The translations under genes and the position numbers were made by a program. A stretch of DNA of 64,000 bases from a virus (lineage: Duplodnaviria; Heunggongvirae; Uroviricota; Caudoviricetes), in the IMG/VR virus record IMGVR_UViG_3300028586_000764; one strand, given 5' to 3'. Shown here piece after piece: positions 2,918 to 62,819 of the stretch. Under the pieces are notes generated by a model. That model was not told where the DNA came from and did no database searches. It saw only the letters and a list, made by a program, of their open reading frames with translations. Numbering within the stretch: the stretch's first letter is position 1; the number at the start of each line of letters is the position of its first letter.

Positions 2918-4651
2918 TTAGTTTGCTTCTTGCGGTGCTTCTGGAGCCGGAGCCGAGGCTTCGGCAGCCGAGGCGTTCAGCACGCCGCTCATGCCGACAG
3001 CCGATGCCACCAGAGCGTCCATGTTGCCGCCACCTTTCAGACCGACTTCAGCGAGCAGGCCGTCGACGACGGGCTGGCTGGTGCGATACCGCAGTGCAGC
3101 GGTGACCACTTCGTTGCCCAGGCCACCACCGGCAGCACCGTTGCCAGCAGCGGTACCAGCTGCGCCGGCACCACCAGTCAGGCCACCGACTTCCGCGATG
3201 CGGATGGAGTCGATGTTTTCCAGCGGCTTGACGCTCTGCTCGATGATTGCCGGCAGGACTGCCAGCAGCTGCATCTTGACTTGCTGAGCGATGACTTCCG
3301 GCGACAGCGCGTTTTGAGCTTCGTTTTTCTCGCGCAGTGCGGTTGCAACTGCGTTACCTTCGGCGATGGTCGCTTCGGCGCGCAGCAGTGCTGCGTCCTT
3401 GTCACCTTCGGCACGGGTACGTGCGGCGTTTGCCAGGTCTTCTGCAGCGTTGCGTTCGGCTTCAGCAGCCACCAGCACGGCAGTCGATTCCTTGCGAGCT
3501 TCTTCTTCAGCGCGGACCAGGGTCACGGCCTTGCTACGATTGGCGATTTCCACCTCACGTGCAGTGGTGACCTGTTCTTCAGCAGCGACAGCCAGGGCGC
3601 GAGCCTTAGCAGCTTCCGCTTCAGCAGCAGCTTCCTGCTCGCTCTTCTTCGCCACGGTGATGGCCTGGTCTTGGGCCGCCAGGCGAATCGTCGTTTCGGC
3701 GTCGATTTGCGCAGTTTCCACCGCTTTCTTCTTGGTCGCTTCCGACTGGGCAACGGCACGCTCGGTGTCGATGCGCTTCTGGGCGATGTTCTGGTTGGCG
3801 TCCAGGTCGGCCGATTCCGCACGTTGGCGACCTTCGGCTTTCACGCGTGCGACTTCGGCTTCTTGGGTTGCCGTCATCGTTGCGATTTCCTGTTCGTTCT
3901 GCAGTTCGGCTTCCGACTGGCTACGCTTCAGGGCCAGGGTCTGCTGGGTTGCAGCCAGGTCCTTCTCGGCGATTGCCACGCGGGTATCTTGCTTGGTAGC
4001 GTTGATATCGCGACGACGGGCTTCGGTCTGACGGGTCAGCTGGGCCAGACCTTCGGCGTCGAACGCGTTGTTCGCATCGAAGTACTGGGCTTCGGTCTGG
4101 TTGAGAGCGGTCAGCGAGACCGATTCCAGTTCCAGACCGTTGGTCAGCAGGTCTTCCTTGACGCTGTTCTTCACGGCTTGCGTGAATTCAGCGCGCTTTT
4201 CGTGCAGCTCGTGCATCGACATGGTTCCTGCGACAGCACGCAATGCGGCGACGAACTTCGCTTCGACCTGCGCCTTGAGCTTGACAGGGTCATTGGTCAT
4301 GGCGCCCAGGGTCGTTGCGGCCGTAGAAATGGACGCAGCGTCGGCCTTCACTCGAACGAAGAAGTCCACCTTGACGTCGACTCGCATCTTGTCGCCAGCA
4401 ACGAGAGCATCGTGCTTGCTGCGTTCGACAGACAGCGGCAGCGTCTTCATGTTGACGTACGTTGCCGTATGCAGTCGTGGCAGAACGAAAGCGCCACCGT
4501 TGAGCACCACCTTTTCGCCGCCCACGCCGGTGCGGATGAACGCACGTTCTTTGGACGAGATGATGTAGAACTTCATCACCACCATGCCAACGACGGCCAG
4601 TGCGATGAGAATGCCGATGATAACGCCGGCGGTCGACAGAATTGCGCTCAT
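2918..4651 (-). CDS. yqiK: flotillin / SPFH (band-7) family protein, YqiK-like
   Basis: The 577-aa protein has an N-terminal TM segment and an SPFH domain. It has a long Ala/Glu/Gln-rich coiled coil and a Gly/Ala-rich C-terminus. There is an AGGAG RBS 5 nt from the ATG. Confidence 0.9.
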   Translation of the reverse strand: MSAILSTAGVIIGILIALAVVGMVVMKFYIISSKERAFIRTGVGGEKVVLNGGAFVLPRLHTATYVNMKTLPLSVERSKHDALVAGDKMRVDVKVDFFVRVKADAASISTAATTLGAMTNDPVKLKAQVEAKFVAALRAVAGTMSMHELHEKRAEFTQAVKNSVKEDLLTNGLELESVSLTALNQTEAQYFDANNAFDAEGLAQLTRQTEARRRDINATKQDTRVAIAEKDLAATQQTLALKRSQSEAELQNEQEIATMTATQEAEVARVKAEGRQRAESADLDANQNIAQKRIDTERAVAQSEATKKKAVETAQIDAETTIRLAAQDQAITVAKKSEQEAAAEAEAAKARALAVAAEEQVTTAREVEIANRSKAVTLVRAEEEARKESTAVLVAAEAERNAAEDLANAARTRAEGDKDAALLRAEATIAEGNAVATALREKNEAQNALSPEVIAQQVKMQLLAVLPAIIEQSVKPLENIDSIRIAEVGGLTGGAGAAGTAAGNGAAGGGLGNEVVTAALRYRTSQPVVDGLLAEVGLKGGGNMDALVASAVGMSGVLNASAAEASAPAPEAPQEAN

Positions 4652-19284: not shown

Positions 19285-19330
19285 GGCTATACGAGGCAGT
19301 AGGACACAAATTCAACCCCCGTAGGACACA
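19285..19330 (+). promoter_or_regulatory. recurrent upstream element (GGCTATAC-N8-AGGACACA ... AGGACACA) for rIIA
   Basis: The sequence is gtGGCTATACgaggcagtAGGACACAaattcaacccccgtAGGACACAgacaatATG. Confidence 0.5.
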
Positions 19331-31719: not shown

Positions 31720-31739
31720 GCTATAGGTGAGAGGACATG
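31720..31739 (+). promoter_or_regulatory. recurrent upstream element (GCTATAG-N5-AGGACATG) for DNA polymerase
   Basis: The sequence is ctaGCTATAGgtgagAGGACATGgg, about 55 nt upstream of 31793. Confidence 0.45.
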
Positions 31740-31792
31740 GGACGTGGATATACGTCCTTTCAATTTTTAGCAACGAGAGGAGATTTACCTTT

Positions 31793-34700
31793 ATGCAACT
31801 CGGATTCGATTTGGTCTATACCGACCCGAACACGCACGAAATCGTGCCTTGGGCAATGCCTGACACGAAGCTGTTTGCCCGTATCGAAGCGGCACCATGG
31901 AAAGTGGTCGACGTGGAGACTACCGGCCTGAATCCTGCAAGCAAGGAACAGAAGTTCTCCGGCAAGGAACTGCGTCGGGGTATCAACCCGGTGCTGCGCC
32001 TACGCATTCTGTCGGTGCTGTACCCGATGATTGGTACGGCCAAAGGCTACGACGTCGTCGCTTTCGACTTCGACCAGATGACCCAGAAGGAACGTGAACA
32101 AGCGGCTACGGCTTCGATGAACAATGTCGTCATCGCACACAACGCCGGCTTCGACGCGTACTGGATTCGCCAGTTCACGAAAGTGACGCCGAAGCTGTTG
32201 CTGGACTCGATGCTGATGGCCCGCGTGCTGCGCCCTGAACACCCGCTGGTCATGGCGCGCATCTGCAACGACGAGAACGAGGACCCGGACATCAAGGCGG
32301 AAGCCGAAGCGATGTTCATGCAGGGCCGCTCGGGCTGGTCGCTTGCCGACCTGTCGGTAGGCGTTCTGCGTCGTATTCTGCCTAAGGGCCTGCAAGGTCC
32401 TAAAAACTGGGCAGAGCCGTTCCTGACGCAAGCGAACTACAACTACGCCACCGATGACGTCCGGGTGCTGCACGACCTGCTGCTGGACCTGTTCGAAATC
32501 GACAGTTGTGACCAGCTGCTGGAGCGCTACTATGAGCTGCGCGCAGAGAATCGCGTGCTGCGCATCATTGAGCCCCAGGTGCTGGACATCGTGATGATGC
32601 GGGAACACGGCATGCCGTGGGACCAAGCTGAAGCTGCGAAGTACATCGAAGTCCAGTGGGACAAGGTGCGTCAGTTTGCAAAGCGCATGGTGGAACTCGA
32701 ACCGGCCCTGGCCAAGTTCGAGCGCGACCTGGGCGATGCCGGCAAAGGCATTACGGCCAACCTCAAAACCGCTATCGGCGAAGCATTTGCCGCCCGCGGC
32801 CTCGAGCTGGAGATGACGGAGAAATCCAACACCTTCAAGATTGGCGAGAAAGACTTGCGTCGTGCTCGCGCACAGGTCAGCGACGATGCCCGGGAACTGT
32901 TTGACACCTGGGTCGGCCTGAACCGTGCAAAGAAAGCTGGCGGTATGGCCATGGAAGTGACGGGCTACGCGGTACGCTCTCCTCAACGGGATAGCCGTCT
33001 GCATCCGAACACGGGCCACGGTCCGGTGACGGGCCGTCTGTCGTCATCCGAGCCGAACTGCTTCACCGGCGACACCGAAATCCTCACGCTTCAAGGCTGG
33101 GTGCGTTTCGACGAGCTGGACGATGATGCCAAAGTCGCGCAGTACGTCGACGGCCGTATCGAGTTCGTGAGCACGCTCGACGTGATTCGCGAAGACTGGG
33201 AAGGCACCCTGGTGCACAACCAGACCTCGAGCACTGACCTGCTGACGACGCCGATGCACCGCTGCCTGCTGATTGACCCCGTGTCGAAAAAGCAACGCGT
33301 GGTGATGGCCGAGGACTATCCGGAAGGCTATCGCCAGCTGCACGGCGGTATGTACGCGGGCGGCGAAGGCTTGGGCGTGAACGAAGCAGAACTGCGCTTC
33401 CTCGTCATGGGCCACGCTGCCGGCAGCTGGGAAGAAGACGGTTCGTTCACGCTGCGCTTCTCGCGTGCGCGTAAAGCAGAACGTTTCCTGAAGCTGTTTG
33501 CCAACCTGGACCCGATGGCCAACGTGCTGTCGACCGATGCACGCAGCTTCCGTTTCGGACCGACGCACGAACTCACCGAGCTGGCTGAGCTGTACCTGGG
33601 ACACGACTACGAATTCGGTTTCGGCGAATGGGTATTCTCCCTGAGCCGTGAGCAAATCGAGGTGTTCTTCGACGAGCTGACCCGTACGGATGCGACCCAC
33701 GCGAAGCCGACCAAGGCCTATCGTGCCCAGTATGTGGCTACTCGCAAGAGCGACGCAGACATGGTTCAAGCCCTGTATGCGGTGTCGGGTGCAATGGCCC
33801 GCGTGCAGTCGAATCTGGACAAGAAGACCGGAGAACAAACCTGGACCGTCAAGGCGGTGCAACGCGACTACACGTTCACCACTAACCGCACGCAAGAGCT
33901 CAAGCCTTACAAGGGCAAGGTTTACTGCGTGACGGTGCCGAGCAGCTTTATCGTGGTTCGCCACGGTGACAGCCTGCCGATGGTGACGGGTCAGTGCCAG
34001 CAGTTCCCGCGTGACCAGGGCTTCCGTAACTGTGTGATGGCGCCGGAAGGCTACAAAATCATGGCATCGGACTATTCCGCACTGGACATGCGTGTGGGTG
34101 CTGCACTGGCAATTCGTGCGCAGCGACATATCTTCGAGGCGTACATGGGCGACCGGGCAGTACATCCGGACGCAGCACGTGTGATTGCCCGGGTGTATGA
34201 AGGCAAGATTTCGATGGAAGCCGCTCGCGCCGAGGAAGCTCGTGCCGTTAAGGCCTTCGGTGACTGGAAAGCTCGTCGTGAAGACGTCGCTGACGCAATG
34301 GACGCTCGCAAGCGTTACTGGGAAGAGTACCGCAAACGTGCTCGCACCCAGCTGCTCGCCGGCTTCCAGCGCTGCCTGAAGGAAGTTCGACTGAAGGCCG
34401 ACTCCGAGGGCACCTCGGAGTGGGGTTCGCTGCGCGATGCGTTCAACATCGAAGGCATGGACATCCACACCTGGACCGCGCTGGGCATGGTGGGTGAAGA
34501 CCCGAAAGCGCTGTTCTCGGGCCTGTCCGGAGAAGACGTCGCCAAGTCGCTCAAAGAGTGGAAGAAGAAGCTCGGCGACAAGCGTCAAACCGGTAAGGTC
34601 GGTAACTTGTCGCTGCTGTATGCGATGAAGACCCAGGGCCTGATGGATGCTGCAGCTAAAAACTACAACATCCACTGGACTTACGAGGAAGCCGACAAGG

Positions 34701-35149
34701 TGCGCAACGATTGGCTGGCCGCTTACGTCGAAATCGACCTGTGGCACAAGTGGACCGAGCTCAACCCGGCAGAACAAGTGTATGTGCCAGACTTCGACCG
34801 CGGCGGCAAGTTCGCCAAGAAAGAGGTTTACGCATCGTACACGCTGGGTGACCGCCTCATCTACGCCTTCGGCCTGAACGCTGCTCTGTCGTACGAGGAC
34901 CAATCGACCGGCGCTGACATTCTGGGCCTGGTGATGCAAACGCTGCGGGAGTTCCATCCGGACATCTTCGATAGCGTCATCAACCAGGTGCACGATGAAT
35001 TGGTGTTCATGCTGCCTGACGAGAAAGTCGAGGAATGGACCGAGATTGTTCAGCGGGTCATGACTGAGTGCGCTGAGCACTTCCTGATGCAGTTCGGCGT
35101 GCGTGGTGAATGCTCTCCGGCTACGGGTCAGGTCTGGCTCAAGGACTGA
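31793..35149 (+). CDS. family-A DNA polymerase with N-terminal 3'-5' exonuclease domain, interrupted by an intein
   Basis: The exonuclease motifs are VVDVETTG, VIAHNAGFDAYW and YATDDVRVLHDL. The polymerase motifs are RLSSSEPN|intein|CQQFPRD, DYSALDMR (A), KRQTGKVGNLSLLYAM (B) and VHDELVF (C). There is a GAGGAG RBS. Confidence 0.95.
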   Translation: MQLGFDLVYTDPNTHEIVPWAMPDTKLFARIEAAPWKVVDVETTGLNPASKEQKFSGKELRRGINPVLRLRILSVLYPMIGTAKGYDVVAFDFDQMTQKEREQAATASMNNVVIAHNAGFDAYWIRQFTKVTPKLLLDSMLMARVLRPEHPLVMARICNDENEDPDIKAEAEAMFMQGRSGWSLADLSVGVLRRILPKGLQGPKNWAEPFLTQANYNYATDDVRVLHDLLLDLFEIDSCDQLLERYYELRAENRVLRIIEPQVLDIVMMREHGMPWDQAEAAKYIEVQWDKVRQFAKRMVELEPALAKFERDLGDAGKGITANLKTAIGEAFAARGLELEMTEKSNTFKIGEKDLRRARAQVSDDARELFDTWVGLNRAKKAGGMAMEVTGYAVRSPQRDSRLHPNTGHGPVTGRLSSSEPNCFTGDTEILTLQGWVRFDELDDDAKVAQYVDGRIEFVSTLDVIREDWEGTLVHNQTSSTDLLTTPMHRCLLIDPVSKKQRVVMAEDYPEGYRQLHGGMYAGGEGLGVNEAELRFLVMGHAAGSWEEDGSFTLRFSRARKAERFLKLFANLDPMANVLSTDARSFRFGPTHELTELAELYLGHDYEFGFGEWVFSLSREQIEVFFDELTRTDATHAKPTKAYRAQYVATRKSDADMVQALYAVSGAMARVQSNLDKKTGEQTWTVKAVQRDYTFTTNRTQELKPYKGKVYCVTVPSSFIVVRHGDSLPMVTGQCQQFPRDQGFRNCVMAPEGYKIMASDYSALDMRVGAALAIRAQRHIFEAYMGDRAVHPDAARVIARVYEGKISMEAARAEEARAVKAFGDWKARREDVADAMDARKRYWEEYRKRARTQLLAGFQRCLKEVRLKADSEGTSEWGSLRDAFNIEGMDIHTWTALGMVGEDPKALFSGLSGEDVAKSLKEWKKKLGDKRQTGKVGNLSLLYAMKTQGLMDAAAKNYNIHWTYEEADKVRNDWLAAYVEIDLWHKWTELNPAEQVYVPDFDRGGKFAKKEVYASYTLGDRLIYAFGLNAALSYEDQSTGADILGLVMQTLREFHPDIFDSVINQVHDELVFMLPDEKVEEWTEIVQRVMTECAEHFLMQFGVRGECSPATGQVWLKD
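33059..33994 (+). other. intein (312 aa) inserted in polymerase motif between SSSEPN and CQQFPRD
   Basis: The intein starts CFTGDTEILT and ends ...VVRHGDSLPMVTGQ before +1 Cys. Degenerate LAGLIDADG-like segments are present (LVMGHAAGSWEEDGSF). It is in-frame with both exteins. Confidence 0.75.
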
Positions 35150-38050: not shown

Positions 38051-38070
38051 GTTGTCCTGACTCGTATAGC
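38051..38070 (-). promoter_or_regulatory. recurrent upstream element (GCTATAC-N5-AGGACAAC)
   Basis: The coding strand reads gcgCTATACgagtcAGGACAACttgaAAGGAcacaaagctATG. Confidence 0.5.
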
Positions 38071-38094: not shown

Positions 38095-38128
38095 GCTATA
38101 CGTGTTTTCTAATTTGGATTTGAGGACA
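38095..38128 (+). promoter_or_regulatory. recurrent upstream element (GCTATAC-N21-AGGACA as RBS) for 38133 gene, divergent with 38051-38070
   Basis: The sequence is gtcGCTATACgtgttttctaatttggatttgAGGACAcatcATG. Confidence 0.45.
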
Positions 38129-39032: not shown

Positions 39033-39053
39033 ATTGACCAGCCATGTATAGCA
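39033..39053 (-). promoter_or_regulatory. recurrent upstream element (TGCTATAC-N5-TGGTCAAT)
   Basis: The coding strand reads ttGCTATACatggcTGGTCAATtacaattttcAAGAGGtcaccATG. Confidence 0.45.
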
Positions 39054-46747: not shown

Positions 46748-47185
46748 ATGCCTCGAAAAAAAGAAGATTTCGCAAACCACCCTTGGGACGTAGCGACAGC
46801 AACGCCGCTGAGGCGGCAGTCCACCCCACTGAGTAAGATGCAGGACATCGACCCTGGTGTGAACTTTTTCGTCCTCGCCCTCGAGGCACTGGGCGCCACG
46901 CCCCATTTTTCTTGCGAGGGTCATACAAGAGGTTTTTACGTGTTGTTCTCGGCACCTTATGAGCTTGCCTTGGACATTCGGAAGGCCGGCTATTTCTCAG
47001 TCCAAATTGAAGACCAGGGAACCTGGTCGATTCGGAAGACGTCCGCAGAATACGTAGAATACGCTGAAGCCCCCTACACCGAGAAAGCCAAGGTCTGGTT
47101 ATTGCGCGCTGCGGCTGACGCCTGGCTACGCCACTTCGGAAACCGTCTCGCGACCCTGAATCCCTCGTCGCAGCTATTGGCGTAA
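46748..47185 (+). CDS. hypothetical protein (145 aa)
   Basis: There is an AGGAG RBS 5 nt from the ATG. Confidence 0.65.
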   Translation: MPRKKEDFANHPWDVATATPLRRQSTPLSKMQDIDPGVNFFVLALEALGATPHFSCEGHTRGFYVLFSAPYELALDIRKAGYFSVQIEDQGTWSIRKTSAEYVEYAEAPYTEKAKVWLLRAAADAWLRHFGNRLATLNPSSQLLA

Positions 47186-47217
47186 CGCGTCACGATAATT
47201 CAAAAACCAACTTCACG

Positions 47218-47559
47218 ATGCCAAACAAAACTGCAGCTGCAGCATCCAGCCTCTTCCAAGAGAAAAAACGAACCTACGTAGATGCACTTCATGTAGAGCT
47301 GAGCCTGAGTCATCGGATTCAGGTAGGCTTTTTCGTCACCGAGTTCCTGCTCAATGCCAGTGCGCTGCAGGCCGCCTATCCGAAGTCACGGAGTCGCTCG
47401 CACATGGACCAATACTTCGAGCGCCGCCAGGCGTCACTAGTGGCGGACGTCGGAACCGGCCATTGGAAGGCCGCTTGCCATCAAGCTTTGTGCAGGGACT
47501 ATCTTGCGGGCCAACTTGACTGGGTGATATCCCACTATCGGACGGATGCTACCTGCTGA
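47218..47559 (+). CDS. hypothetical protein (113 aa)
   Basis: The ORF follows the 46748 gene in an operon. The RBS is weak. Confidence 0.45.
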   Translation: MPNKTAAAASSLFQEKKRTYVDALHVELSLSHRIQVGFFVTEFLLNASALQAAYPKSRSRSHMDQYFERRQASLVADVGTGHWKAACHQALCRDYLAGQLDWVISHYRTDATC

Positions 47560-47586
47560 ATTGTACTGGCAAGGGAAACTTCCGAC

Positions 47587-47623
47587 AAAAAAGCCCTCCT
47601 TGCATCACTGCGAGGAGGGCTTT
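47587..47623 (-). terminator. rho-independent terminator
   Basis: The minus strand reads gccctcctcgc-agtgatgca-aggagggc followed by TTTTTT. Confidence 0.75.
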
Positions 47624-47636
47624 GTCAATCAGTACA

Positions 47637-48323
47637 TCAGCCTTGGTTGAACAGCACCCAAGGGCAGTCGGCTTTCTTGGCTTGCGCGAAGAATACCTTC
47701 AGCTCGGCCGGGCAAGTCGAGTCTTCCAGCGCTCGGCTGGTGTAGACCATGAATTCCCAGACACCAGGTTCCTTGTCATTGCCGCGGTGCGCGAAGCTAC
47801 CGTTGGCTTGAATCCAGGCCCAAGCCGGCAGCTGGTCTGGGGTGTCATACTCGAAGTTATCGGTCATGTCGACTTCGAACACGTGTACGACCCGGTCTTG
47901 GTACATCGGCGTCGGAACCACCTTTGCTTCCAGTTCTCCAAGGGAGAGCGTCAGCGTCTGGGTGTCTCGGCCGAGGACCTCGAACCATTCGTCATACTCA
48001 GGTTCATAGCCGCCGCCGTCCGCGTTGATGATGGCGATTGCCTCTTCATCACTTGGCGCGTCATCACGGTAGACGTTGAACACGTCCTGGCCATGCTTGT
48101 GGTGATGCACGATACTCCACGATACGACTTGCACCGTGATGCGGCGCTCCTCGTTAGGACTCGCAGCTTGCCGTTGTGCGGCGGAAGCAGCATTCCAGGA
48201 CGCGTAGCCGTGCATCTTGGCCACGAGTTCGAGCGATTCACCAACGGCCAGGCTTGCGCCCTTTTGCGCATAAGCTTCGCGCAGCATGCGGGCCTGTTCT
48301 TTCAGTTGCGGAGTGCGATGCAT
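47637..48323 (-). CDS. hypothetical protein (228 aa)
   Basis: There is an AAAGGAA RBS 5 nt from the ATG. It lies immediately downstream of the group II intron. Confidence 0.65.
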   Translation of the reverse strand: MHRTPQLKEQARMLREAYAQKGASLAVGESLELVAKMHGYASWNAASAAQRQAASPNEERRITVQVVSWSIVHHHKHGQDVFNVYRDDAPSDEEAIAIINADGGGYEPEYDEWFEVLGRDTQTLTLSLGELEAKVVPTPMYQDRVVHVFEVDMTDNFEYDTPDQLPAWAWIQANGSFAHRGNDKEPGVWEFMVYTSRALEDSTCPAELKVFFAQAKKADCPWVLFNQG

Positions 48324-48389
48324 GAGTCTTTCCTTTCACAATCGCGAAGGTTCCGAGCTCCCAATACGTATTGGGTCCGGAATGCGGTG

Positions 48390-50724
48390 GTGGGTAGGAG
48401 CACTGTCTCGCGACAAACACTCCCCCCTATAAACCGTACGTGCGAGTTTCCCCGCATACGGCTTCAATCAACGGAAAGTCGGGCGGGCCCGACCGGCAAT
48501 AGAAACTTGAAACCTGTGGCATGGCCCCTCGTGTGACAGAGGGGGTGAAGTAGAGCGAGGTTTTCCGAGGTGTTGGGACCCTTATCGACCCGGCGAACCA
48601 GGTGATGAGTGTGCCAACGAGTAAGCCTCGTGATAGCCTCGGCACAGACGGGGCAAAGCCCTTTCTGTCGCCTCCACAAATACAGCAGCCGGCGTCGGCC
48701 TTGAAGATTGTTCTCCATTTGCACGGAGAATCGCTCCTCGAAGTAGGTTTCGAACGCTGGGTTGAACGGTTGAGCCTCCTCTCGAATCTTCACATGGCGA
48801 CGGATGACCGTCTCCAGTGCGTATCTCAAGGTTAGCAGTTTCCGTTCACCATTCTTCTGTATTTCCGTGGTGCTGAAGCGGAAGGTACGGGCGCCGACAG
48901 GTTTGAAGTACCTGGAGAGTATCCAGGGCCTCGACTTGTTCGGATGCCGTCTCTTCGCCCAGCGCCAAAGCGCTTGCCATATTTCTTTGTCGACGTTGTT
49001 GTAAGTGTCTTTCGACACCACGTGCTGATGGTAGTTAGCCCAGCCCCGAATCTTTGGATTCAAGACCTTAATCAGCAGACTTTGTGGCGACGTACGATGT
49101 TTCCGTATTGTCGTCCTGACCGCGTCGAGGAACGTTTTCACGTTCTTCTTGGCCGGCTTGATGAGCAGTTTTTCCTTAGATGTACCATGGTGGTACTTCC
49201 GGACGTTCTGCCCCAGGAAGTCAAAGCCTGTTCCAACGTGGGTCACCTTAGTCTTCTCCTCGGAGAGGGTCAGACCTCGGCTTGCCAGGAAGTCGCGCAC
49301 GAGCGGTTTGACCTTGTCTTCGAGCAGCTCTTTCGAGCTACCCGTGATGACGAAGTCGTCCGCGTACCGGACCACTTGAACTTGTGACTTGGCGGCGATA
49401 TGATGCTTGACGCGCTTCAGACCGTGGGAACGACCGAAGTGTTCAATCAGCAAATCTTCCAGCCCGTCGAGAGCCAAGTTGGCCAAGATGGGAGAGATGA
49501 GTCCCCCTTGTGGCGTACCTTCCGTTGTTGGATACAACGAACCTTTGTCGACAAACCCCGCCTTCAGCCATTTTTCCAACACGCTAGTGTCGGTGCAGAT
49601 GTTTTTCAACATCCAGCCGTGACTGATATGGTCGAAGCAACCCTTGATATCGCCTTCTAACACCCATGCCGCGGATTTCTTGTGCGAGAGGAGTGAGAAG
49701 AGTTTGGCGATAGCGTCCGCGGTCGAGCGTGCAGGTCGGAACCCGTAGCTGTTCCAGTCGGCCGTGGTCTCCGAGACGGGTTCCAGCGCCAGCGCGTGCA
49801 GAGCCTGCATTGCGCGGTCCTTCATCGTCGGGATTCCCAGGGGACGTTTCTTTCCATTGGCTTTGGGGATGTACACGCGTCGTAGCGGTTTCGGCTGGTA
49901 GCCTTTGCGCACGAGCGTCCCAATAGCTTTTGCTTTGGCCTGCGGAGAGTCCCAGGTTACCCCGTCGACTCCCGCAGTCCGTTTGCCTTGATTTTCAGTT
50001 ACTCGTCGAACTGCCAAGGCTTTGGCAGAATACGAGTGCGTCAGCAACCATTGCAGGGCTTTCACCTTGCGCCAGTGCTTCAGCTCAGTTGCCTTCGCGA
50101 TGCGTACTTGCAGCTTCCTTACCTCCAGATGACAACGTGCCCAGTCGATGCTGTGCCAGTCGATACCTGTAGTGGGAGCCGCATCCGCACCGAATGCTAC
50201 TTTCGTAGCGTCTAATGCAGTCATTTGCTTGTCCCCCTAAAGAGAAGTTCCGCGAGTTATTTCGCGATGTTGACAAGAACTAAGTCAGCCGGCTTTCACC
50301 GCGGTGCAAAGCACCTATCACACCGATTACAGGTGCGCGTTCGCTTCTTAGTTCATCCTCTACCCTCTAAGCCATGGGCGTTCCTTGCGGTCAGCTTGCT
50401 CGCCTTGCGGAGAGCGACTTATAGGGCTTACCCCGGTCTCGTTGATGCAACACTACTGGGTTAGGTCCCACCTATACACCGTGCGCTTGAATGTCCGTGC
50501 AGTCCCAATTCCTAGGGGATTTGCCAGCGCGTGCCTTTTGGCTTGAGTCTGTCAGCTTTTTTGACTCATTCGCAGTAACGGCGATTATCAGTGGTTCACG
50601 TGAGTTGACCATACCAGTAAGCCTAGTCCTATCCCAGATAAAGCTTCCAGGTTCACTTCGTGCCTCACGGCCCGACTTGTGACACTCTTTCGAGTTTCGG
50701 TACATTGTCCTCCGAGCTTCACAC
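48390..50724 (-). mobile_element. group II intron (ORF-containing, with domain V/VI); boundaries approximate
   Basis: Domain V, GAGCCGTATGCGGGGAAACTCGCACGTACGGTT, lies on the minus strand at about 48416-48450. Domain VI-like GGGGGAGUG...GCUCCUACCC with a bulged UA follows, and the 3' end is at about 48390. The candidate 5' GUGUG is at about 50724. The protein ORF sits in domain IV. Confidence 0.8.
48464..50224 (-). CDS. group II intron-encoded protein: reverse transcriptase / maturase / HNH endonuclease
   Basis: The RT motifs are RPLGIPT and YADDFVI. The maturase domain is RGWANYH. The C-terminal zinc finger/HNH is CPVCAEAI...WHTHHLV...CHTRGH. It ends just before domain V. Confidence 0.9.
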
Positions 50725-50816
50725 CCCGCAGTTACCCGCGACGCATGTCAGAGTAGGCTACTCTCGACGGAACGAGAGGTTTCCCTAACCAAAAAGATGG
50801 CCTGAAACAATTGCAA

Positions 50817-50840
50817 AAACGACCTTGCGGGTCGCACAAG
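50817..50840 (-). terminator. rho-independent terminator upstream of the intron
   Basis: The minus strand reads cgacccgc-aag-gtcg followed by TTTTTG. It lies inside the weak ORF 50748..50942. Confidence 0.6.
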
Positions 50841-50961
50841 AATGCCTGCGTTATCGACCAAAAACCCTCGCGGTGAGCGGATAGGCTTGGTTGAAGTAGA
50901 TATTTTCCTGTCTTTACCGTATGAGATGCATTCGCACCTCACTGCAGGCAGCGGGCGGTCA

Positions 50962-50984
50962 GGTGGCCTAGAACACGTATAGCG
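50962..50984 (-). promoter_or_regulatory. recurrent upstream element (CGCTATAC-N7-AGGCCACC), minus orientation
   Basis: The coding strand reads ctgCGCTATACgtgttctAGGCCACCtgacc. Confidence 0.4.
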
Positions 50985-51016
50985 CAGCAGCGTTTAATAA
51001 GCCGTAGTCCGTTTTT

Positions 51017-51036
51017 GCTATACGTGCAAGGTCATT
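51017..51036 (+). promoter_or_regulatory. recurrent upstream element (TGCTATAC-N5-AGGTCATT)
   Basis: The sequence is tttTGCTATACgtgcaAGGTCATTattAAAGGAtatttATG. Confidence 0.5.
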
Positions 51037-51050
51037 ATTAAAGGATATTT

Positions 51051-51671
51051 ATGAGCAAAACATCACAAGGCATTCCGGCATATCCGGCCACCATGACATT
51101 TACGTTACCGGACAGCTCTATCGTCGAGTTCCCTGTGGAGTGGACTCCTTGTGGAACCTTGTTCTACCAGCTTTCTGCGGCAGAGTTCCAGTCCAAGGTA
51201 GGCGCGCGGATGGAAGCGCTTGGCGAAGAACTCGTGAGCGCGCGTGTCACATTGAACGAAGACCCAAGTGTTCTCGCGGAGATAGACTTAAACCCCAAAT
51301 GGGGCCTAGTGCCCGTAGGAGACGCCTTAGCCCAGTGGGCTCGCAAAATGCATCCAGAAGACTGTGCTTACCTCGATGAGGTGCTCTATCCTGCTACGTT
51401 ACTCTGGAGGATGCCGGATGGTGGCCTTTTGCGTATGCCAGCCCAATGGGTCAACACAGGCGAAGTCCGCCCGCGTCCAAAGAATCGGCTTCTATCAGAG
51501 CTGATGAAGGCTCGGTGGGCACTCGAACCCGGTGCGACTGGTTTTGCACACATCATCCTGCGTGCTGACCCTACCATCGTCGCTGCCGTCAAAATTAGCG
51601 AAGACAATGAAGTCATGGCGCCATCACTGGCCTTCGAGACTTGGGTTTCCAAGAACCCTAAGCCTGACTGA
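51051..51671 (+). CDS. hypothetical protein (206 aa)
   Basis: There is an AAAGGA RBS and a terminator downstream. Confidence 0.7.
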   Translation: MSKTSQGIPAYPATMTFTLPDSSIVEFPVEWTPCGTLFYQLSAAEFQSKVGARMEALGEELVSARVTLNEDPSVLAEIDLNPKWGLVPVGDALAQWARKMHPEDCAYLDEVLYPATLLWRMPDGGLLRMPAQWVNTGEVRPRPKNRLLSELMKARWALEPGATGFAHIILRADPTIVAAVKISEDNEVMAPSLAFETWVSKNPKPD

Positions 51672-51681
51672 TTACATTCAG

Positions 51682-51709
51682 CCCACGGCACCCTGCCGTG
51701 GGTTTTTTT
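51682..51709 (+). terminator. rho-independent terminator
   Basis: The hairpin cccacggca-ccc-tgccgtggg is followed by TTTTTTT. Confidence 0.85.
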
Positions 51710-51863
51710 ATTACAAGCACATTAGAGGCGTTCGAGCAGGTTCAGCAAATGGGGCCGCAGCCGTTAGGTTAGTTTTAAGAAGAGTTCCCAGGCTCAAAGG
51801 GCTAAACCATAGTTCATATTTTATGAAGATACGCAGCTTTCTTGACCGATTTAAGCCTCCAAT

Positions 51864-52145
51864 ATGACCAAACAACACCTCTCCATGCTGCTGGCGCTGG
51901 CCGTACTGGCAGGCTGCTCGGCACAAGATAAACCGGCGGCGCCACCAACCGCTAAACCGCCTGCTAGCACGGCCCCGGTCGCGGTCATTGTAGACGTCCC
52001 GGCTAGCCCTGCCCCTGTAGTGCCACCAGCCCCCCGCGTGGTGGCGCCAAAGCCGAAAGTTCAAAAGCAAGGTAATGCGATGCCTGAACTCACCCCGCAG
52101 GAGTTCGCTGCGTTAAAGGCTCGTTTGTCCGCGCCAGGCCGCTAA
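51864..52145 (+). CDS. small Pro/Ala-rich lipoprotein (93 aa)
   Basis: The signal peptide is MTKQHLSMLLALAVLAGC with an LAGC lipobox. The RBS is weak. Confidence 0.6.
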   Translation: MTKQHLSMLLALAVLAGCSAQDKPAAPPTAKPPASTAPVAVIVDVPASPAPVVPPAPRVVAPKPKVQKQGNAMPELTPQEFAALKARLSAPGR

Positions 52146-52270
52146 TTGTTAGCAAAAGATGGGACCCGCTCCTGTTCAGCAGACAGTTCGCTAGACAACC
52201 TATGGAGCGTGTCTATCAAAGCTGACTGCACATCGACCGCCCTCACCAACTTCTCGGCTCCACTACACGA

Positions 52271-54106
52271 ATGAAAAAAATCTCCTCTCTTATCATGGGA
52301 GTCGCGCTCACTGCTTCAAGCCTGTCGGCTGTTGCAGCTCAATACGAAACGCGAATTCTCATCAAAACTCTGAAGGTTACGGGCAGCCCGCAACCTGGCA
52401 CCGGCACGCCGGGAACCGGAACGACGCCTGGCACCGGTGGCACGGGTGGCTCCGGTACAGGAGGCACGGGCGACACGTCTACGCCGTCCTCGAAAGCCGT
52501 GACCCTGACTCCGGGCTCTACGGACTTTGGTGCGCTTCAAGTGGGCGAGACTTCCACCGTCCGCGCTTTCCTGTTGAGCAATCCGGACACCGTCGACAAG
52601 GCGATTTCGGACATTCATGTCAATGGTGCTGACTTCAAACTGTCCGGCAACCAATGCGGCACAACGCTGGCCGCGGGTAGTACCTGCAACATCGGCGTGG
52701 TGATGACTGCCGGCGGCCTGGGAGCCTCCTCGGGCTCGTTGTCGGCAACGGTTGCTGGTCAAGTGCTAACCGCGTCCCTGACGGGCACGGGCAAGTCGGT
52801 TGACGCCGCTCTGCAGGCGTCCCCTGCTTCCGTCGACTTCGGCGCCGGTGTAACTGGCCAATCGTCGGAGGTGAAGACAGTTTCACTTCACAACTCGAAC
52901 GATGTCGCTGTCCAGTTCAGTGGTTTCTCGATGGATAGCGCCACCAAAGCGAATTTCAATGTGGACCCCGCTGGCTGCGGGACCTCGCTTGCAGCTGGTG
53001 CGTCGTGCAACCTGTACGTAATGATGACCCCCTCGCAGGCGGGCGCTCTTTCGGGTAGTATCTCGATTGTCGCGGGCGGTCGTCTAACGAACGTGGCGCT
53101 GAGCGGTAGCGCTGTAGCCGCGACCAAATCCATCGCCAACTCAGGCTGGACCACTTTGACCGCCGAGCCTGGCCGTCCGAGCACTGGCTCTGTTGCCCTC
53201 AGCAACACAGGCAACTCGACAATCCGCCTGGGCGCGATTTCCACCGGAACGCCATACTTCTCGATTACCAGCAATGAATGCGGTACCGAGTTGGCTCCTG
53301 AAGGCTATTGCACGGTCACCGTTCAGTTCTCGCCTAACAAGGCCGGCGACTTCGCGGACACGCTGACCATTGAGAGCGATGCGACAAACAACGCTTCACT
53401 CCAGCTAACGGGTACAGGTATCGCCCCGCAGCCGCACCTGGACCAGATTTCTGGCGGCTACTTCGGCACTCCGTACGTGAACACCACGGACTCGACCACT
53501 GTCGTATTCCAGAACACCGGCCAAGTTCTCACGAAAGTGGGCACCATCAGCTACCAGGGTACTGGCGGCACTACCGCGCCGGCATCCACTGTGTTTAACG
53601 TGACTTCCGACACCTGTACTGGCGCGTCGCTCGCACCAGGTGCTACCTGTAATGTGGTCGTGGCTTTGACCGGTAAGCAAGAACCAACCAGCTATTCGAT
53701 GTCCATCTACCCGAAATACGGTGAGACTGGCACGGAAGCGACGAGCTATGGCTATGTGGGTGGTAATTTCCACTACATGTACACCGCGATGACGGCTACG
53801 AACTTTGGCGGCACGTTCAACTCGACCACCCCGGACAGCACTCCAATTGCGTTCCAGACTTCTGGTGGCACTTCGCAGCGCACCTTCACGCTGACCAGCC
53901 GCGACTCTGCTCCTGGCACCGTGACCGTGGCGAGCTCTAACGCACCTGAGTTTGTCATCAGCTCGAACACCTGCCTTGGTACCCTGGCGCCGAACCGCAG
54001 CTGCACGTTTGTGGTCACCTTCAAATCAGCCGGCTCCGGACAACGCGCTGGCAACATCAACATCGGTGGCGCCACCAAGATGTCAGTCAGCCTGACGGGC
54101 AACTAA
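52271..54106 (+). CDS. large secreted protein built from about 5 Ig-like (choice-of-anchor-D-like/ASH-like) repeats
   Basis: The signal peptide is MKKISSLIMGVALTASSLSAVAAQ. A repeating pattern L.P...FG...VG..S......N.G...I.I..I...G..F......CG..LA.G.SC...V.F.P is present. There is an N-terminal G/T-rich linker. Confidence 0.8.
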   Translation: MKKISSLIMGVALTASSLSAVAAQYETRILIKTLKVTGSPQPGTGTPGTGTTPGTGGTGGSGTGGTGDTSTPSSKAVTLTPGSTDFGALQVGETSTVRAFLLSNPDTVDKAISDIHVNGADFKLSGNQCGTTLAAGSTCNIGVVMTAGGLGASSGSLSATVAGQVLTASLTGTGKSVDAALQASPASVDFGAGVTGQSSEVKTVSLHNSNDVAVQFSGFSMDSATKANFNVDPAGCGTSLAAGASCNLYVMMTPSQAGALSGSISIVAGGRLTNVALSGSAVAATKSIANSGWTTLTAEPGRPSTGSVALSNTGNSTIRLGAISTGTPYFSITSNECGTELAPEGYCTVTVQFSPNKAGDFADTLTIESDATNNASLQLTGTGIAPQPHLDQISGGYFGTPYVNTTDSTTVVFQNTGQVLTKVGTISYQGTGGTTAPASTVFNVTSDTCTGASLAPGATCNVVVALTGKQEPTSYSMSIYPKYGETGTEATSYGYVGGNFHYMYTAMTATNFGGTFNSTTPDSTPIAFQTSGGTSQRTFTLTSRDSAPGTVTVASSNAPEFVISSNTCLGTLAPNRSCTFVVTFKSAGSGQRAGNINIGGATKMSVSLTGN

Positions 54107-60344: not shown

Positions 60345-61121
60345 TTACTTCCGCGCAGCTCCTTTTTCGGTGCCTGTGCACACAAGGCTCAGGTCTTCAC
60401 CATCTTGACGGACGCCGCAGCCTCGGGCCCACGGATGCTGACCCTGGTAGAACTGATGCATCTCTTGAGCGTAGCGGACGAACGCCGCTTTGCCGTTGTC
60501 CTTGTCGCAGGCAGGGGTCGAATCTGCCGGCATCAGGAGGTTCACACGCTCAAGCAGCTTATCAGCCGCGGTCTGCGCAACTTTCGGTTCACCAATATCA
60601 GCCTGGATGCCCAATACAGCGATAGCAAAGGGCAGGTCGAGTCGGCCAACCACTTGAACAGCATGGGGCTCTACGACACCGCAGGATAGGCCAAGCAGGG
60701 TGGCTCGGCGCGCTTCATCCAGGAAGCTGCCCAGCTTTCCGATGACCACTTGCTGCTTTTTGGAGAACTGTGTGCCGAACGTCGCCGCGTACATGCCCTC
60801 ACGAGCCGCTGGCGCTTTACGAAGTTCCGCGCCCATCGCAGGTTCGATTGCGTCGCGGTACGCCGGCGACAGCGCAACGCCCCAGCGCCCTTCTCCACAC
60901 TCCCAGGCATCTGTGCGGGCAACTCCAGAGACTTCGGTCATGGCGTAGGTTTCGCCCATTACACGCAACCGTTCGGGGCTAGCGTGCGAAACGATACATG
61001 CGGCGACCGTGTCTGCCTGTGCAGTGGTCGGCTTGTCAGCACACCCGGTGAGTAGCGGGCTCGCCATCCCGGCGATTAGAATCAGCGCCAACGACTTAAA
61101 GCGCGAAGAGTACGAGGTCAT
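60345..61121 (-). CDS. lipoprotein (258 aa)
   Basis: The start at 61121 has a GGAAGGAA RBS. The signal peptide is MTSYSSRFKSLALILIAGMASPLLTGC with an LTGC lipobox. Confidence 0.65.
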   Translation of the reverse strand: MTSYSSRFKSLALILIAGMASPLLTGCADKPTTAQADTVAACIVSHASPERLRVMGETYAMTEVSGVARTDAWECGEGRWGVALSPAYRDAIEPAMGAELRKAPAAREGMYAATFGTQFSKKQQVVIGKLGSFLDEARRATLLGLSCGVVEPHAVQVVGRLDLPFAIAVLGIQADIGEPKVAQTAADKLLERVNLLMPADSTPACDKDNGKAAFVRYAQEMHQFYQGQHPWARGCGVRQDGEDLSLVCTGTEKGAARK

Positions 61122-61921
61122 GAAGGCGTTCCTTCCATTGCAAATTTTGTAGAGGTCTGTTTGGCTGGTTCGCGGTTGCCCTTGTCGTCGACGAAGATTT
61201 CGCGGAACGCGACGTACATAAGGGCTGGCAAGAAGCACAGCAGTAGAGGTGTGATACCTGGCAGCCCCCATATGGCAACCAGAATCAGAAGGCGGACCGC
61301 TAATGCGAATTCCACTCCTAGCCTGGAATTCTTGTGTGTCGCCTGGCGCAGCAGCAGCTGTACTTGTGATTCGTCGAGCCCGAACTCTCGGCGCAAAGGA
61401 TGTCGCAGCCCTGCCAGGTCGAGCACGGTATATCTTTGCAACGAGGCCGCCAAAATCAACATCATGCTTGCCGGCGTGAAGGGCGACGCATCTGAAAAGA
61501 GCCATACCAGCGGATTAGACAGGTCAGGCGCTGCCAGCTTTTGTGCCGCCGACTCCGGCTGCATGGCCGACCACGCACACAGCGTTGCAGCGATTATTCC
61601 GATAATCAGAATAGCTCGCGCGGATACTCGGATTTCGTAGACCAGCTCCCGTGTGGCCGCATGGAAAATACCGGGCAAGTCAGCCATGCGAAGTACGTGA
61701 TTGTCGGAGACGCTGACAATTTCCAGCCCTACGCCCAAGCACCACGCCAGGAAAAACGGCGTCAGTAAAACGAGGTGCGCTTGCTCCAGCGCCCAAGTTA
61801 TGCCGCACATGGCGAGTGCGAGTGCAAATAAGGTGTGAAAAGACCGTCCCATCAGCTCCAAGGCCTGGCGGGCCCACCTGCGGGCATATCCCGGCGCCAC
61901 TTGGCGAGGCTCAATTACCAT
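61118..61921 (-). CDS. polytopic membrane protein, paralogue 1 (267 aa)
   Basis: The protein runs MVIEPRQVAPGYARRW... to ...LPALMYVAFREIFVDDKGNREPAKQ. It is about 40% identical to the next gene. There is a GAGG RBS. Confidence 0.7.
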   Translation of the reverse strand: MVIEPRQVAPGYARRWARQALELMGRSFHTLFALALAMCGITWALEQAHLVLLTPFFLAWCLGVGLEIVSVSDNHVLRMADLPGIFHAATRELVYEIRVSARAILIIGIIAATLCAWSAMQPESAAQKLAAPDLSNPLVWLFSDASPFTPASMMLILAASLQRYTVLDLAGLRHPLRREFGLDESQVQLLLRQATHKNSRLGVEFALAVRLLILVAIWGLPGITPLLLCFLPALMYVAFREIFVDDKGNREPAKQTSTKFAMEGTPS

Positions 61922-61936
61922 AGCTGAGACCTCGCA

Positions 61937-62734
61937 TCAGGCCGTGCCGCCCTGGGCGGCAGTGCTGGTCGCGACCTGCTTTGCAGGCTCTCGGTTACCC
62001 TTATCGTCGACGAACATCTCGCGGAACGCGACGTAGCTTAGGGCCGGCAGTAGGCACACCAAGAAGGGTGCCAGGATTGGTAAGAACATGCTCGCTGCGA
62101 TTATCAAACCCAGCGGAACAAGCTGCATAAACGCAGTCGCCGGCAGGTTTTTGAACATCGCGCGATGAAGCAGCGTCCTGACTTGGCCCTCGGGAACATC
62201 ATAGGTGCGTTGCAGTGGGTGCGCCAACGTACCCAGGGCTGCGGTATGCCCTTGGAGCATCTGACCACAAAGCAGAACCAGCATCGACTTAAAGAACGGA
62301 GAGTCAGTCGTTGCAATCCAAGTCCACAAACTGGTGAGGTCTGGCGTAGGTGCTTCACGAACGGCCGTCGGTTTCGGCATGTTCCCCAGATAGAACTGGA
62401 CCAACAGGTAGACAGCCACGATAAGAAGCACCCAGCGTTTTTGCCAGACATCTCGAACGGTGCCTACCGCTGCGGTATGCAAAATAGTAGGAAGGTCCGA
62501 CAACTTGACAACCTGATTGTCGGCCGTTGCGGCGAACTCAATGGAAACGATACAGGCATACAGCCCGAACGGAATTGCGGCCAGTTCGGACAGCCATCCG
62601 AGGCCCATCGTGAGGAGACAAAACACCATGGCAAAGCCAAACCAGATGTGAAACGCACGTCCAATGAGTTCAAACGACTGCGAGAACCACCTAAGCACGA
62701 AGCCCGGTTCGATTTTGCGAGGTTCGATGACCAT
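61937..62734 (-). CDS. polytopic membrane protein, paralogue 2 (265 aa)
   Basis: The protein runs MVIEPRKIEPGFVLRW... to ...LPALSYVAFREMFVDDKGNREPAKQ. There is an AGGAA RBS 6 nt upstream. Confidence 0.7.
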   Translation of the reverse strand: MVIEPRKIEPGFVLRWFSQSFELIGRAFHIWFGFAMVFCLLTMGLGWLSELAAIPFGLYACIVSIEFAATADNQVVKLSDLPTILHTAAVGTVRDVWQKRWVLLIVAVYLLVQFYLGNMPKPTAVREAPTPDLTSLWTWIATTDSPFFKSMLVLLCGQMLQGHTAALGTLAHPLQRTYDVPEGQVRTLLHRAMFKNLPATAFMQLVPLGLIIAASMFLPILAPFLVCLLPALSYVAFREMFVDDKGNREPAKQVATSTAAQGGTA

Positions 62735-62819
62735 AATTTTTTCCTGAAATGTGCCTGGAGGACGACGCAAACGGACCCCAGGGCATACCATGAGGTCCGT
62801 CGTATTCCGGGCGGACGTA

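Follow-up and report, generated by a model that had tools for sequence, protein, structure and literature searches.

The 64,000-nucleotide (nt) stretch of IMG/VR virus record IMGVR_UViG_3300028586_000764 analysed here (Caudoviricetes; hereafter the window) carries on its minus strand a group II intron that interrupts a conserved non-coding leader RNA, located upstream of a gene for a protein of 228 amino acids (aa). The identity, boundaries and class of the intron, as well as its position within the leader, are held with high confidence. Once spliced, the leader measures ~197 nt, beginning just past a GCTATAC box and ending at the start codon of that gene. Judging from its preserved parts, the intron is probably competent in splicing and mobility, and a fair, if slightly less secure, case can be made from homologous loci for the leader acting as a structured regulator of translation. 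A broader proposal is tentative, and as a whole somewhat doubtful: the leader may represent a pseudoknotted translational switch (a riboswitch or one that responds to a protein) of a class not described before and specific to a clade of huge phages, and the intron may home to it, such that assembly of the regulator and expression of the 228-aa gene would become dependent upon splicing.

Boundaries and class of the intron

Two Rfam models, RF02012 for the domain I core and RF00029 for domains V and VI, are the only ones matched at gathering level in the 64 kb, the former over its full length with 113.5 bits and the latter at 48466–48389 with 58.3 bits (gathering threshold 40). The domain V/VI sequence, AAGCCGUAUGCGGGGAAACUCGCACGUACGGUU, contains a bulged branch-point A at 48395. 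This covariance-model search had been proposed as a check in a first-pass annotation of the window, and its outcome agrees with the group II intron that this annotation had recognised on the minus strand and with the 3′ limit it had placed near 48390. The 5′ limit was sought among relatives of the intron protein (80 loci in bacterial genomes and 27 in IMG/VR, 47–61% identity), for which the DNA 5′ of the open reading frames (ORFs) was compared; 37 non-redundant relatives, a set that includes the window's own intron, were aligned over their first 640 nt. Alignable relatives (45 related loci) all start with GTGCGAC-N4-6-GTCG-..TAAGTAATTGTTT.., ~55 nt 5′ of the Rfam domain-I match, and the GUGCGA start is found in 35 of the 37 non-redundant introns. 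The equivalent sequence in the window is GTGCGACCCGCAAGGTCGTTTTTGCAATTGTTT, beginning at 50837, with GUGCG (50837–50833) as the 5′ end. The earlier candidate, a GUGUG near 50724 opening an intron of roughly 2.3 kb, had to be abandoned together with its length estimate, as it is a GUGUG-AAGC element within the domain-I match.

Intron-less alleles provide the decisive evidence for both junctions. Loci L112 (a 35-kb contig of the European Nucleotide Archive, ENA) and L113 retain the divergent gene pair of the window, its members separated by an intron-less spacer of 273 nt. Their empty site, ...GGTCGATAACGCAGGCATTCCT/ACCGCACTCCG... (the slash marking the point of insertion), is colinear with exon 1 (to 50838) joined to exon 2 (from A48388), fixing both junctions to the base, so that the intron spans exactly 50837 to 48389 and C48389 is intronic, as its third exon-binding site (below) had predicted. 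Comparison with intron-less homologs, likewise recommended in the first-pass annotation, has thus defined the insertion site. At the junction itself these two loci read GCAGGCATTCCT/ACCGCAC (...GCAGGCAUUCCU/ACCGC... for intron-less alleles in related phages), in agreement with seven more intron-less leaders, and the complete target site in L112 is UAACGCAGGCAUUCCU/ACCGCAC. The spliced junction predicted for the window is ...GGCAUUCUU/ACCGCAUUCC... (CAUUCUU/ACCGCA, joining 50838 to 48388). A 3′ splice site between 48390 and 48389, which would give the intron a canonical AC end, was considered and rejected, since it adds a base missing in all intron-less alleles and mispairs with the third exon-binding site. 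The related phage sequence L110, in which the flanking protein is 93% identical, has an identical intron 3′ end and junction. Two assemblies break at this locus, L111 (SRR25478833) ending precisely on the first exon-2 base and L110 (SRR23882335, positions 1–64) inside intron domain V. These breaks may stem from a mixture, in each sample, of genomes with and without the intron, or of several related introns.

Pairings between intron and exons were identified on the 37-intron alignment by scoring columns for complementarity to each intron's own 5′ exon. The column chosen for exon-binding site 1 (EBS1) fully complements exon positions −6 to −1 in 20 of 37 introns, the runner-up column in 2. In the empty sites of L112 and L113 the corresponding intron-binding site (IBS1) reads AUUCCU, a perfect Watson–Crick partner of EBS1. 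EBS2 (CUGCG) pairs with CGCAG at −13 to −9, while U50577, located two nt 5′ of EBS2 and followed by A (G-U-[U]-A-CUGCG), pairs as EBS2a with A at −14. This arrangement is the one described for the EBS2a–IBS2a pair, which is needed for retrohoming of IIB1/IIB2 introns and in which EBS2a is positioned two nt 5′ of EBS2 with an A between them, so that a 5-bp EBS2–IBS2 helix is accompanied by a Watson–Crick pair at −14 (Monachello et al., PMC8643678). The register was checked by aligning the EcI5 intron of plasmid pO157, and its experimentally defined UUA-ACCAG/A-CUGGU occupies identical columns. For EBS3, a single column complements the opening base of the 3′ exon in 17 of 19 relatives; the window has U50474 in this column, which predicts A as that base.

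The intron-encoded protein is indeed the reverse transcriptase (RT)/maturase/HNH protein of the first-pass annotation, with all four expected domains (Table 1), no frameshift, intact YADD and HNH motifs, and its own Shine–Dalgarno (SD) sequence (AGGGGGA) ahead of its ATG at 50224. Identity to the EcI5 protein is 57% over 565 aa, and the best solved relative is the T.el4h RT (Protein Data Bank, PDB, 6ME0; E=4e-187, 626 bits, residues 18–570), compared to 139 bits for LtrA and 100–109 bits for class IIC RTs. EcI5 and T.el4h are both IIB1 introns with proteins of the chloroplast-like-1 (CL1) type (PMC8643678). Group IIB is distinguished by a 4-nt AARC bulge at the ε′ region (PMC12350094), which appears here in GUGUG-AAGC-UCGGAG, with AAGC bulged in the RF02012 consensus structure. 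These features of ribozyme and protein place the intron, as far as sequence can tell, in subgroup IIB1 and its protein probably in the CL1 lineage. Domain I is of full size, EBS2 is present, EBS1 measures 6 nt, and the target is recognised by sequence. Assignment to the terminator-targeting class IIC was examined and ruled out by the HNH domain, the intronic location of the 5′ hairpin, and the lack of a terminator at the empty site; the analogy to such introns implied by the first-pass annotation fails on the same IIB1/CL1, HNH and sequence-specific EBS/IBS grounds. A protein 96% identical to that of the intron is found elsewhere (P0014), and intron proteins ~70% identical (P0015, P0016) are encoded on contigs of 623,534 and 219,825 nt; together with the L168 contig described below, these are possibly genomes of other huge phages.

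A conserved leader RNA split by the intron

An nhmmer profile of the leader matches the window at 50972–50838 and 48389–48318 and nowhere else, and since these matches flank the intron exactly, the intron lies inside the conserved RNA rather than behind it. The first-pass annotation had envisaged a non-coding RNA of ~150 nt with the intron inserted downstream; its non-coding nature and function at the nucleotide level stand, but it is in fact the 5′ two-thirds of a ~197-nt leader that the intron splits. Every homolog examined has the leader upstream, at ten loci extending down to 38–39% protein identity; it is always directly 5′ of the homologous gene and occurs in a single copy per genome. 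Homologs of the 228-aa protein range between 93 and 47% identity; the closer leader loci are L112/L113, L114, L115, L116 and L168, and a profile protein search added the distant loci L236, L238, L239 and L240/L241, with proteins 38–49% identical. Conservation is concentrated in the leader, for which the window and L112 are 91.9% identical, compared to 78.2% for the coding sequence and 53.5% for DNA upstream of the box. In all homologous loci a GCTA(T/C/G)AC box is kept 5–10 nt upstream of AGGCC or a variant of it. The gene that the leader serves is the 228-aa gene.

No conserved start codon, frame or ORF is found in the leader among the homologous loci, and the statement of the first-pass annotation that no convincing ORF lies between box and hairpin is upheld, its 64-aa ORF being as described. 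When this ORF is read through the correct junction (from GTG 50942, 64 aa) it lacks an SD sequence and a conserved start, hairpin lengths differ out of frame, and its substitutions are mostly non-synonymous, as read from the alignment of the window with L112 for this only ORF of the leader; it was therefore rejected. Rfam contains no match to the leader, at E≤5 for the leader region of L113–L116 or at E≤1 for the exon parts of the window. In a metagenome scan with the pattern CCTGASCGCCCGCTNCCTGC, 118 of the 119 loci were chance matches in GC-rich coding DNA (e.g., ...LTARYL...) and only L168 was real. L168 holds the intron-less leader and its gene on JGI contig Ga0308158_10000004, of 1,463,929 nt.

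Comparison of the leaders by RNAalifold and by covariance-model alignment supports the nested helices P2, P3 and P4 and an SD-proximal helix. Among the nine intron-less sequences, 90.2% of cells are paired, as against 75.5% in column shuffles (none of 500 reaching the observed value) and 34–42% with slid partners, and 16 of 28 nested pairs exhibit changes on both sides. P2 illustrates this well, switching from GCCUGC/GCAGGC to GCUCAC/GUGAGC and GCUCGC/GCGAGC, and compensatory changes occur in P4 also; an earlier six-sequence MAFFT alignment gave the same covariation picture. A pseudoknot arises from the crossing of P2 by helix P1 (CCUG-A-GC with GC-CAGG), which shows one compensatory change. 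A further long-range pairing, GCGARGG with CCUUCGC, amounts to seven pairs at ten of ten loci, including a double compensatory change in L236. The SD region, G(U/C)GAAAGG, is a second complement of CCUUCGC, and its GG is found 6–9 nt before the AUG in the nine correctly scored loci. The two pairings of CCUUCGC are predicted to be mutually exclusive, an organisation that is usual for translational riboswitches and for leaders under protein control.

Proposed mechanism and alternative explanations

In the scheme proposed to connect these elements, transcription would begin a few bases after the GCTATAC box and yield a pre-mRNA in which the intron is located 132 nt into the leader, 65 nt short of the start codon and 6 nt past the 3′ strand of P2, a strand that IBS2 overlaps. 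Assisted by its protein, the intron would be spliced out, rejoining the leader halves and restoring regulated translation of the 228-aa protein, which CCUUCGC would control by pairing either with the ribosome-binding site or with the upstream GCGARGG. The excised lariat ribonucleoprotein (RNP) could reverse-splice into perfectly matching empty sites of co-infecting relatives (retrohoming), with HNH cleavage priming reverse transcription at the empty site.

Several observations weigh against this scheme or against parts of it. The covariance-model alignment behind the pairing statistics is fitted to the structure being tested, evidence for the leader derives from only ten sequences representing ~six lineages, and P1 contains a C·A mismatch in the window and in L112. 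Folding of single sequences is no more stable than that of their shuffles (z −1.22 and −1.49), so the case for leader structure rests on comparative evidence from these ~six lineages. The 228-aa protein downstream gives no assignable function, and no clue to a ligand or binding protein. With regard to the intron, the EBS1/IBS1 pairing (AGGAAU with AUUCUU) includes one G·U pair in the window, and the U-run that follows the 5′ hairpin could lower read-through or attenuate transcription into the intron. Its 3′ end is ...CCCACC, compared to the family end ...CCCGAY (...CCCGAC or ...CCCGAU in relatives), the penultimate A, which in group II introns contacts G1, being absent. In full, the intron ends in UACCCACC where all related introns have ...UACCCGAY, with the same change of the penultimate A to C in both phage copies (window and L110); the deviation affects one conserved nucleotide and leaves the class-defining architecture intact.

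These deviations of the intron would suit a remnant that is in decay, no longer moves or splices poorly, and is tolerated in an untranslated region, as would the rarity in the family of a U-run after the 5′ hairpin and the non-coding insertion site, which removes strong selection for splicing. Such a remnant is nevertheless unlikely. The 586-aa ORF is unbroken, with its four domains and both motifs, the domain V triad, bulged branch A and full-length domain-I match are present, and all four exon–intron pairings are kept. In addition, a 96% identical protein exists elsewhere, and the shared 3′ junction of L110 implies that the copy has outlasted phage divergence. Strong constraint on the interrupted leader should also select for splicing. 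Constraint of this kind could alternatively reflect a role as DNA (an operator, an extended promoter or a packaging-type site) or a small encoded protein, a notion supported by the near-invariance of the blocks AGGCCNCCUGASCGCCCGCU and GGUCGAKAACGC, which thus offer no covariation information, and by the unremarkable thermodynamic z-scores. It is given little credence, since neither DNA sites nor ORFs predict that P2, P3, P4 and GCGARGG:CCUUCGC remain paired through changes on both sides. P3 and P4 vary in length without keeping to multiples of three, neither a start codon nor a frame is conserved, the only ORF accumulates mostly non-synonymous substitutions between the window and L112, and a leader found once per genome is not a general promoter.

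The independent small RNA of ~150 nt proposed in the first pass, transcribed from a promoter-to-terminator unit (~50985–50817) with a IIC-like intron ~90 nt behind its terminator, had in its favour a hairpin followed by UUUUU at 50835–50815, the absence of a credible ORF in the unit, and strong conservation after the promoter-like box. The hairpin and U-run reported at 50817–50840 do exist (−8.1 kcal/mol, 6 pairs), but with the true 5′ end at 50837 they are not upstream of the intron. GUGCGAC-N5-GUCG opens nearly all of ~40 related introns, a local fold at intron positions 3–19 is seen in 35 of the 37 non-redundant relatives, in unrelated genomic contexts, and the tail alone is unusual (five or more T in only 3 of 37, most having YAUAAG). 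The hairpin straddles the 5′ splice site and is missing from intron-less alleles, where ...CATTCCT leads directly into ACCGC.... Terminator-like matches in the region are not enriched (5, compared to 3.4 ± 1.8 expected). The putative terminator is hence best read as the intron's own first hairpin, and being inside the intron and missing from the empty alleles it does not terminate a host small RNA. As the Rfam domain-I match starts at 50779, upstream of the 5′ end then proposed (50724), the conserved RNA extends to the start codon, and the protein is HNH-bearing and probably of CL1 rather than IIC type, the small RNA retains hardly any credence. Class IIC introns insert after intrinsic terminators and have no endonuclease domain; the present intron resembles them only superficially, in that a hairpin and U-run adjoin its 5′ splice site, but here the hairpin is intronic. 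A general caution is that the conserved 5′ hairpin of this family mimics a terminator, and the GUGUGAAGC motif in domain I a 5′ splice site. The preferred reading remains an intron within a structured leader.

Relation to known systems

Among known introns, EcI5 (E.c.I5, from the E. coli O157:H7 plasmid pO157) is similar in its GUGCGAC-N5-GUCG start, in the register of EBS2a (U), EBS2, EBS1 and EBS3, in the A at −14, in its RT-X-D-HNH protein (57% identity, as above) and in length (2,406 vs 2,449 nt). It is distinguished by its first 640 nt (only ~56% identical), its target, its ...CCCGAU rather than ...CCCACC 3′ end, and its residence on a plasmid, whereas the window intron resides in the untranslated leader of a huge phage. 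T.el4h (Th.e.I3 of Thermosynechococcus; RNP structures 6ME0/6MEC) is of the same IIB1/CL1 class and the closest solved relative of the protein, and its structures are the structural basis for the EBS2a–IBS2a and EBS3–IBS3 contacts (PMC8643678). Unlike the phage-borne intron of the window it belongs to a cyanobacterial chromosome, and the likeness is drawn from the protein.

Group II introns are uncommon in phages, as the first-pass annotation had remarked. A related RT (tblastn, E≤1e-20) is found in 36 of 50,697 phage records, and Merk, Jones and Eddy (Nucleic Acids Research 2025, PMC12350094) report such introns in 0.06–0.07% of phage genomes, identified by the same Rfam D1–D4 plus D5/D6 signature. 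Jumbophages are represented in their set, as are RT-encoding IIB introns and a single IIC-like case located behind a terminator; two of 20 introns are intergenic and 14 of 20 interrupt protein-coding genes (PMC12350094). None of these is described within a conserved structured leader RNA, and no description of a group II intron in such a position was found in the literature. The present intron therefore adds a well-delimited and apparently intact IIB1/CL1 retroelement to the short list of phage group II introns, which were described in 2025, while the split riboswitch-like leader, judged against Rfam, is a new element. The system, with its natural intron-plus and intron-minus alleles, is ready for splicing and retrohoming assays. 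The leader, for its part, is a candidate for a new regulatory RNA of huge phages, whose cis-regulatory RNAs have hardly been explored.

Location of an intron within the leader raises the question whether splicing acts as a gate for gene regulation. In Clostridioides difficile a c-di-GMP-II riboswitch reportedly lies adjacent to a group I self-splicing intron in one 5′ untranslated region, and splicing is said, in work of Lee et al. in 2010 (Science; cited as "allosteric self-splicing"), to decide whether a functional translation-initiation region is formed. There, a group I intron follows the aptamer and is controlled by it, while the window has a mobile group II intron within the leader. Intron-less alleles show that the leader works without it; any functional coupling in the present case is hypothetical. 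If splicing does govern the switch, the arrangement would be the group II counterpart of the C. difficile system. A highly conserved regulatory RNA would also offer a durable homing site, just as rRNA, tRNA and conserved catalytic motifs do for other group I and II introns.

Promoter-like boxes and genomic context

Coordinates of the intron, the leader and associated features are collected in Table 1.

Table 1. Features of the intron-bearing leader locus and promoter-like boxes in the window
Feature	Position	Strand	Details
Group II intron	48389..50837	−	2,449 nt; subgroup IIB1, CL1-type protein; from Rfam matches, aligned 5′ ends and intron-less alleles
First hairpin of the intron	50815..50835	−	Intron positions 3–19; GCGACC/GGUCGU + UUUUU; consensus scan and relatives
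Domain I core	50626..50779	−	RF02012 (group-II-D1D4-7), 113.5 bits, full model 1–151; includes 4-nt AAGC bulge
EBS2a and EBS2	50571..50577	−	EBS2a U50577, EBS2 CUGCG (50575–50571); register identical to EcI5 UUA-ACCAG
EBS1	50508..50513	−	AGGAAU
EBS3	50474	−	U; pairs with A48388
Intron-encoded protein	48464..50224	−	586 aa; RVT_N, RVT_1 (YADD), GIIM (maturase X), HNH (Pfam)
Domains V and VI	48392..48464	−	Domain V ~48464–48431 (AGC triad), domain VI 48427–48392; RF00029 alignment, RF04356 D5 match
5′ part of target	50838..50851	−	IBS2a A50851, IBS2 CGCAG (50850–50846), IBS1 AUUCUU (50843–50838)
5′ exon	50838..50969	−	First 132 nt of leader; P1, P2 5′ strand, hairpin P3, anti-sequestor GCGAGGG (50871–50865), P2 3′ strand (50849–50844)
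3′ exon	48324..48388	−	Last 65 nt of leader; IBS3 A48388, hairpin P4 (48382–48351), anti-SD CCUUCGC (48350–48344), SD region GUGAAAGG (48339–48332)
Downstream gene	47637..48323	−	228 aa; N-terminal Glyoxalase_8-like segment (Pfam PF20066, residues 4–55); homologs P0001–P0012
Promoter-like box	50974..50983	−	GCTATACGTG; ends 5 nt upstream of the invariant leader-opening AGGCC
Divergent copy of box	51017..51026	+	Exact match; 24 nt upstream of the ATG of the 206-aa gene (51051)
Box sites	19286–19295, 31720–31729, 38095–38104, 51017–51026	+	
Box sites	38061–38070, 39043–39052, 50974–50983	−	
Variant box sites	11128, 21953	+	
Variant box sites	57235, 41115, 29360, 7946	−	

The box preceding the leader is one of seven matches to GCTATACGTG in the window with at most one mismatch, compared to 2.3 expected, a number reached by no shuffle. 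With looser GCTATA variants included, its form is GCTATA(C/G)G, often preceded by GTT, in intergenic positions just 5′ of ORFs, on either strand and in some cases as divergent pairs, and it is probably the −10-like core of this phage's promoters. A recurrent element annotated in the first pass at 50962–50984 does contain this box, but the complete 23 nt are unique in the window even at three mismatches, with only the GCTATAC core recurring. The 206-aa gene is divergent from the unit formed by the leader and the 228-aa gene.

The window has a G+C content of 56.9%, and its phage proteins include RIIA, a family-A DNA polymerase, and several members of PHROG families without known function. The top match of RIIA is to a 595-kb uncultured huge phage (35.6% identity), one protein encoded in the window is on record from a contig in the 0.2–1 Mb class, and the intron-bearing genome is that of a huge (jumbo) phage with no counterpart in reference collections. 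Positions 47000–52500 gave no megablast match in INPHARED (the 50,697 phage records mentioned above), nor did tblastn of both flanking proteins against this collection, and IMG/VR scans with the flanking proteins and with two leader blocks returned nothing. For the 228-aa protein an exact look-up found no record and PHROGs no family, and its AlphaFold model (predicted local distance difference test, pLDDT, 70; predicted template-modelling score, pTM, 0.49) had no PDB match at E≤0.001.

Three additional observations concern other parts of the window and the neighbourhood of a relative. In the polymerase ORF (31727–35149, plus strand, 1,140 aa), residues 127–252 form the exonuclease domain and residues 950–1138 the C-terminal part of the polymerase; the two are separated by ~700 residues with partial PHROG matches to ribonucleotide reductase (537–751) and thymidylate synthase (441–516), and this insert may be an intein or other inserted mobile element. 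The adjacent minus-strand ORFs 61118–61921 and 61937–62791 share a 95-nt stretch of 78% identity (61157–61251 and 61976–62070), a similarity that points to tandem gene duplication. Lastly, a 112-aa ORF at 4587–4925 of L241, ~1.4 kb from the leader–gene unit, has a Cas12f1-like TNB domain (TnpB-like), and is a further trace of a mobile element in the same neighbourhood of this distant relative.

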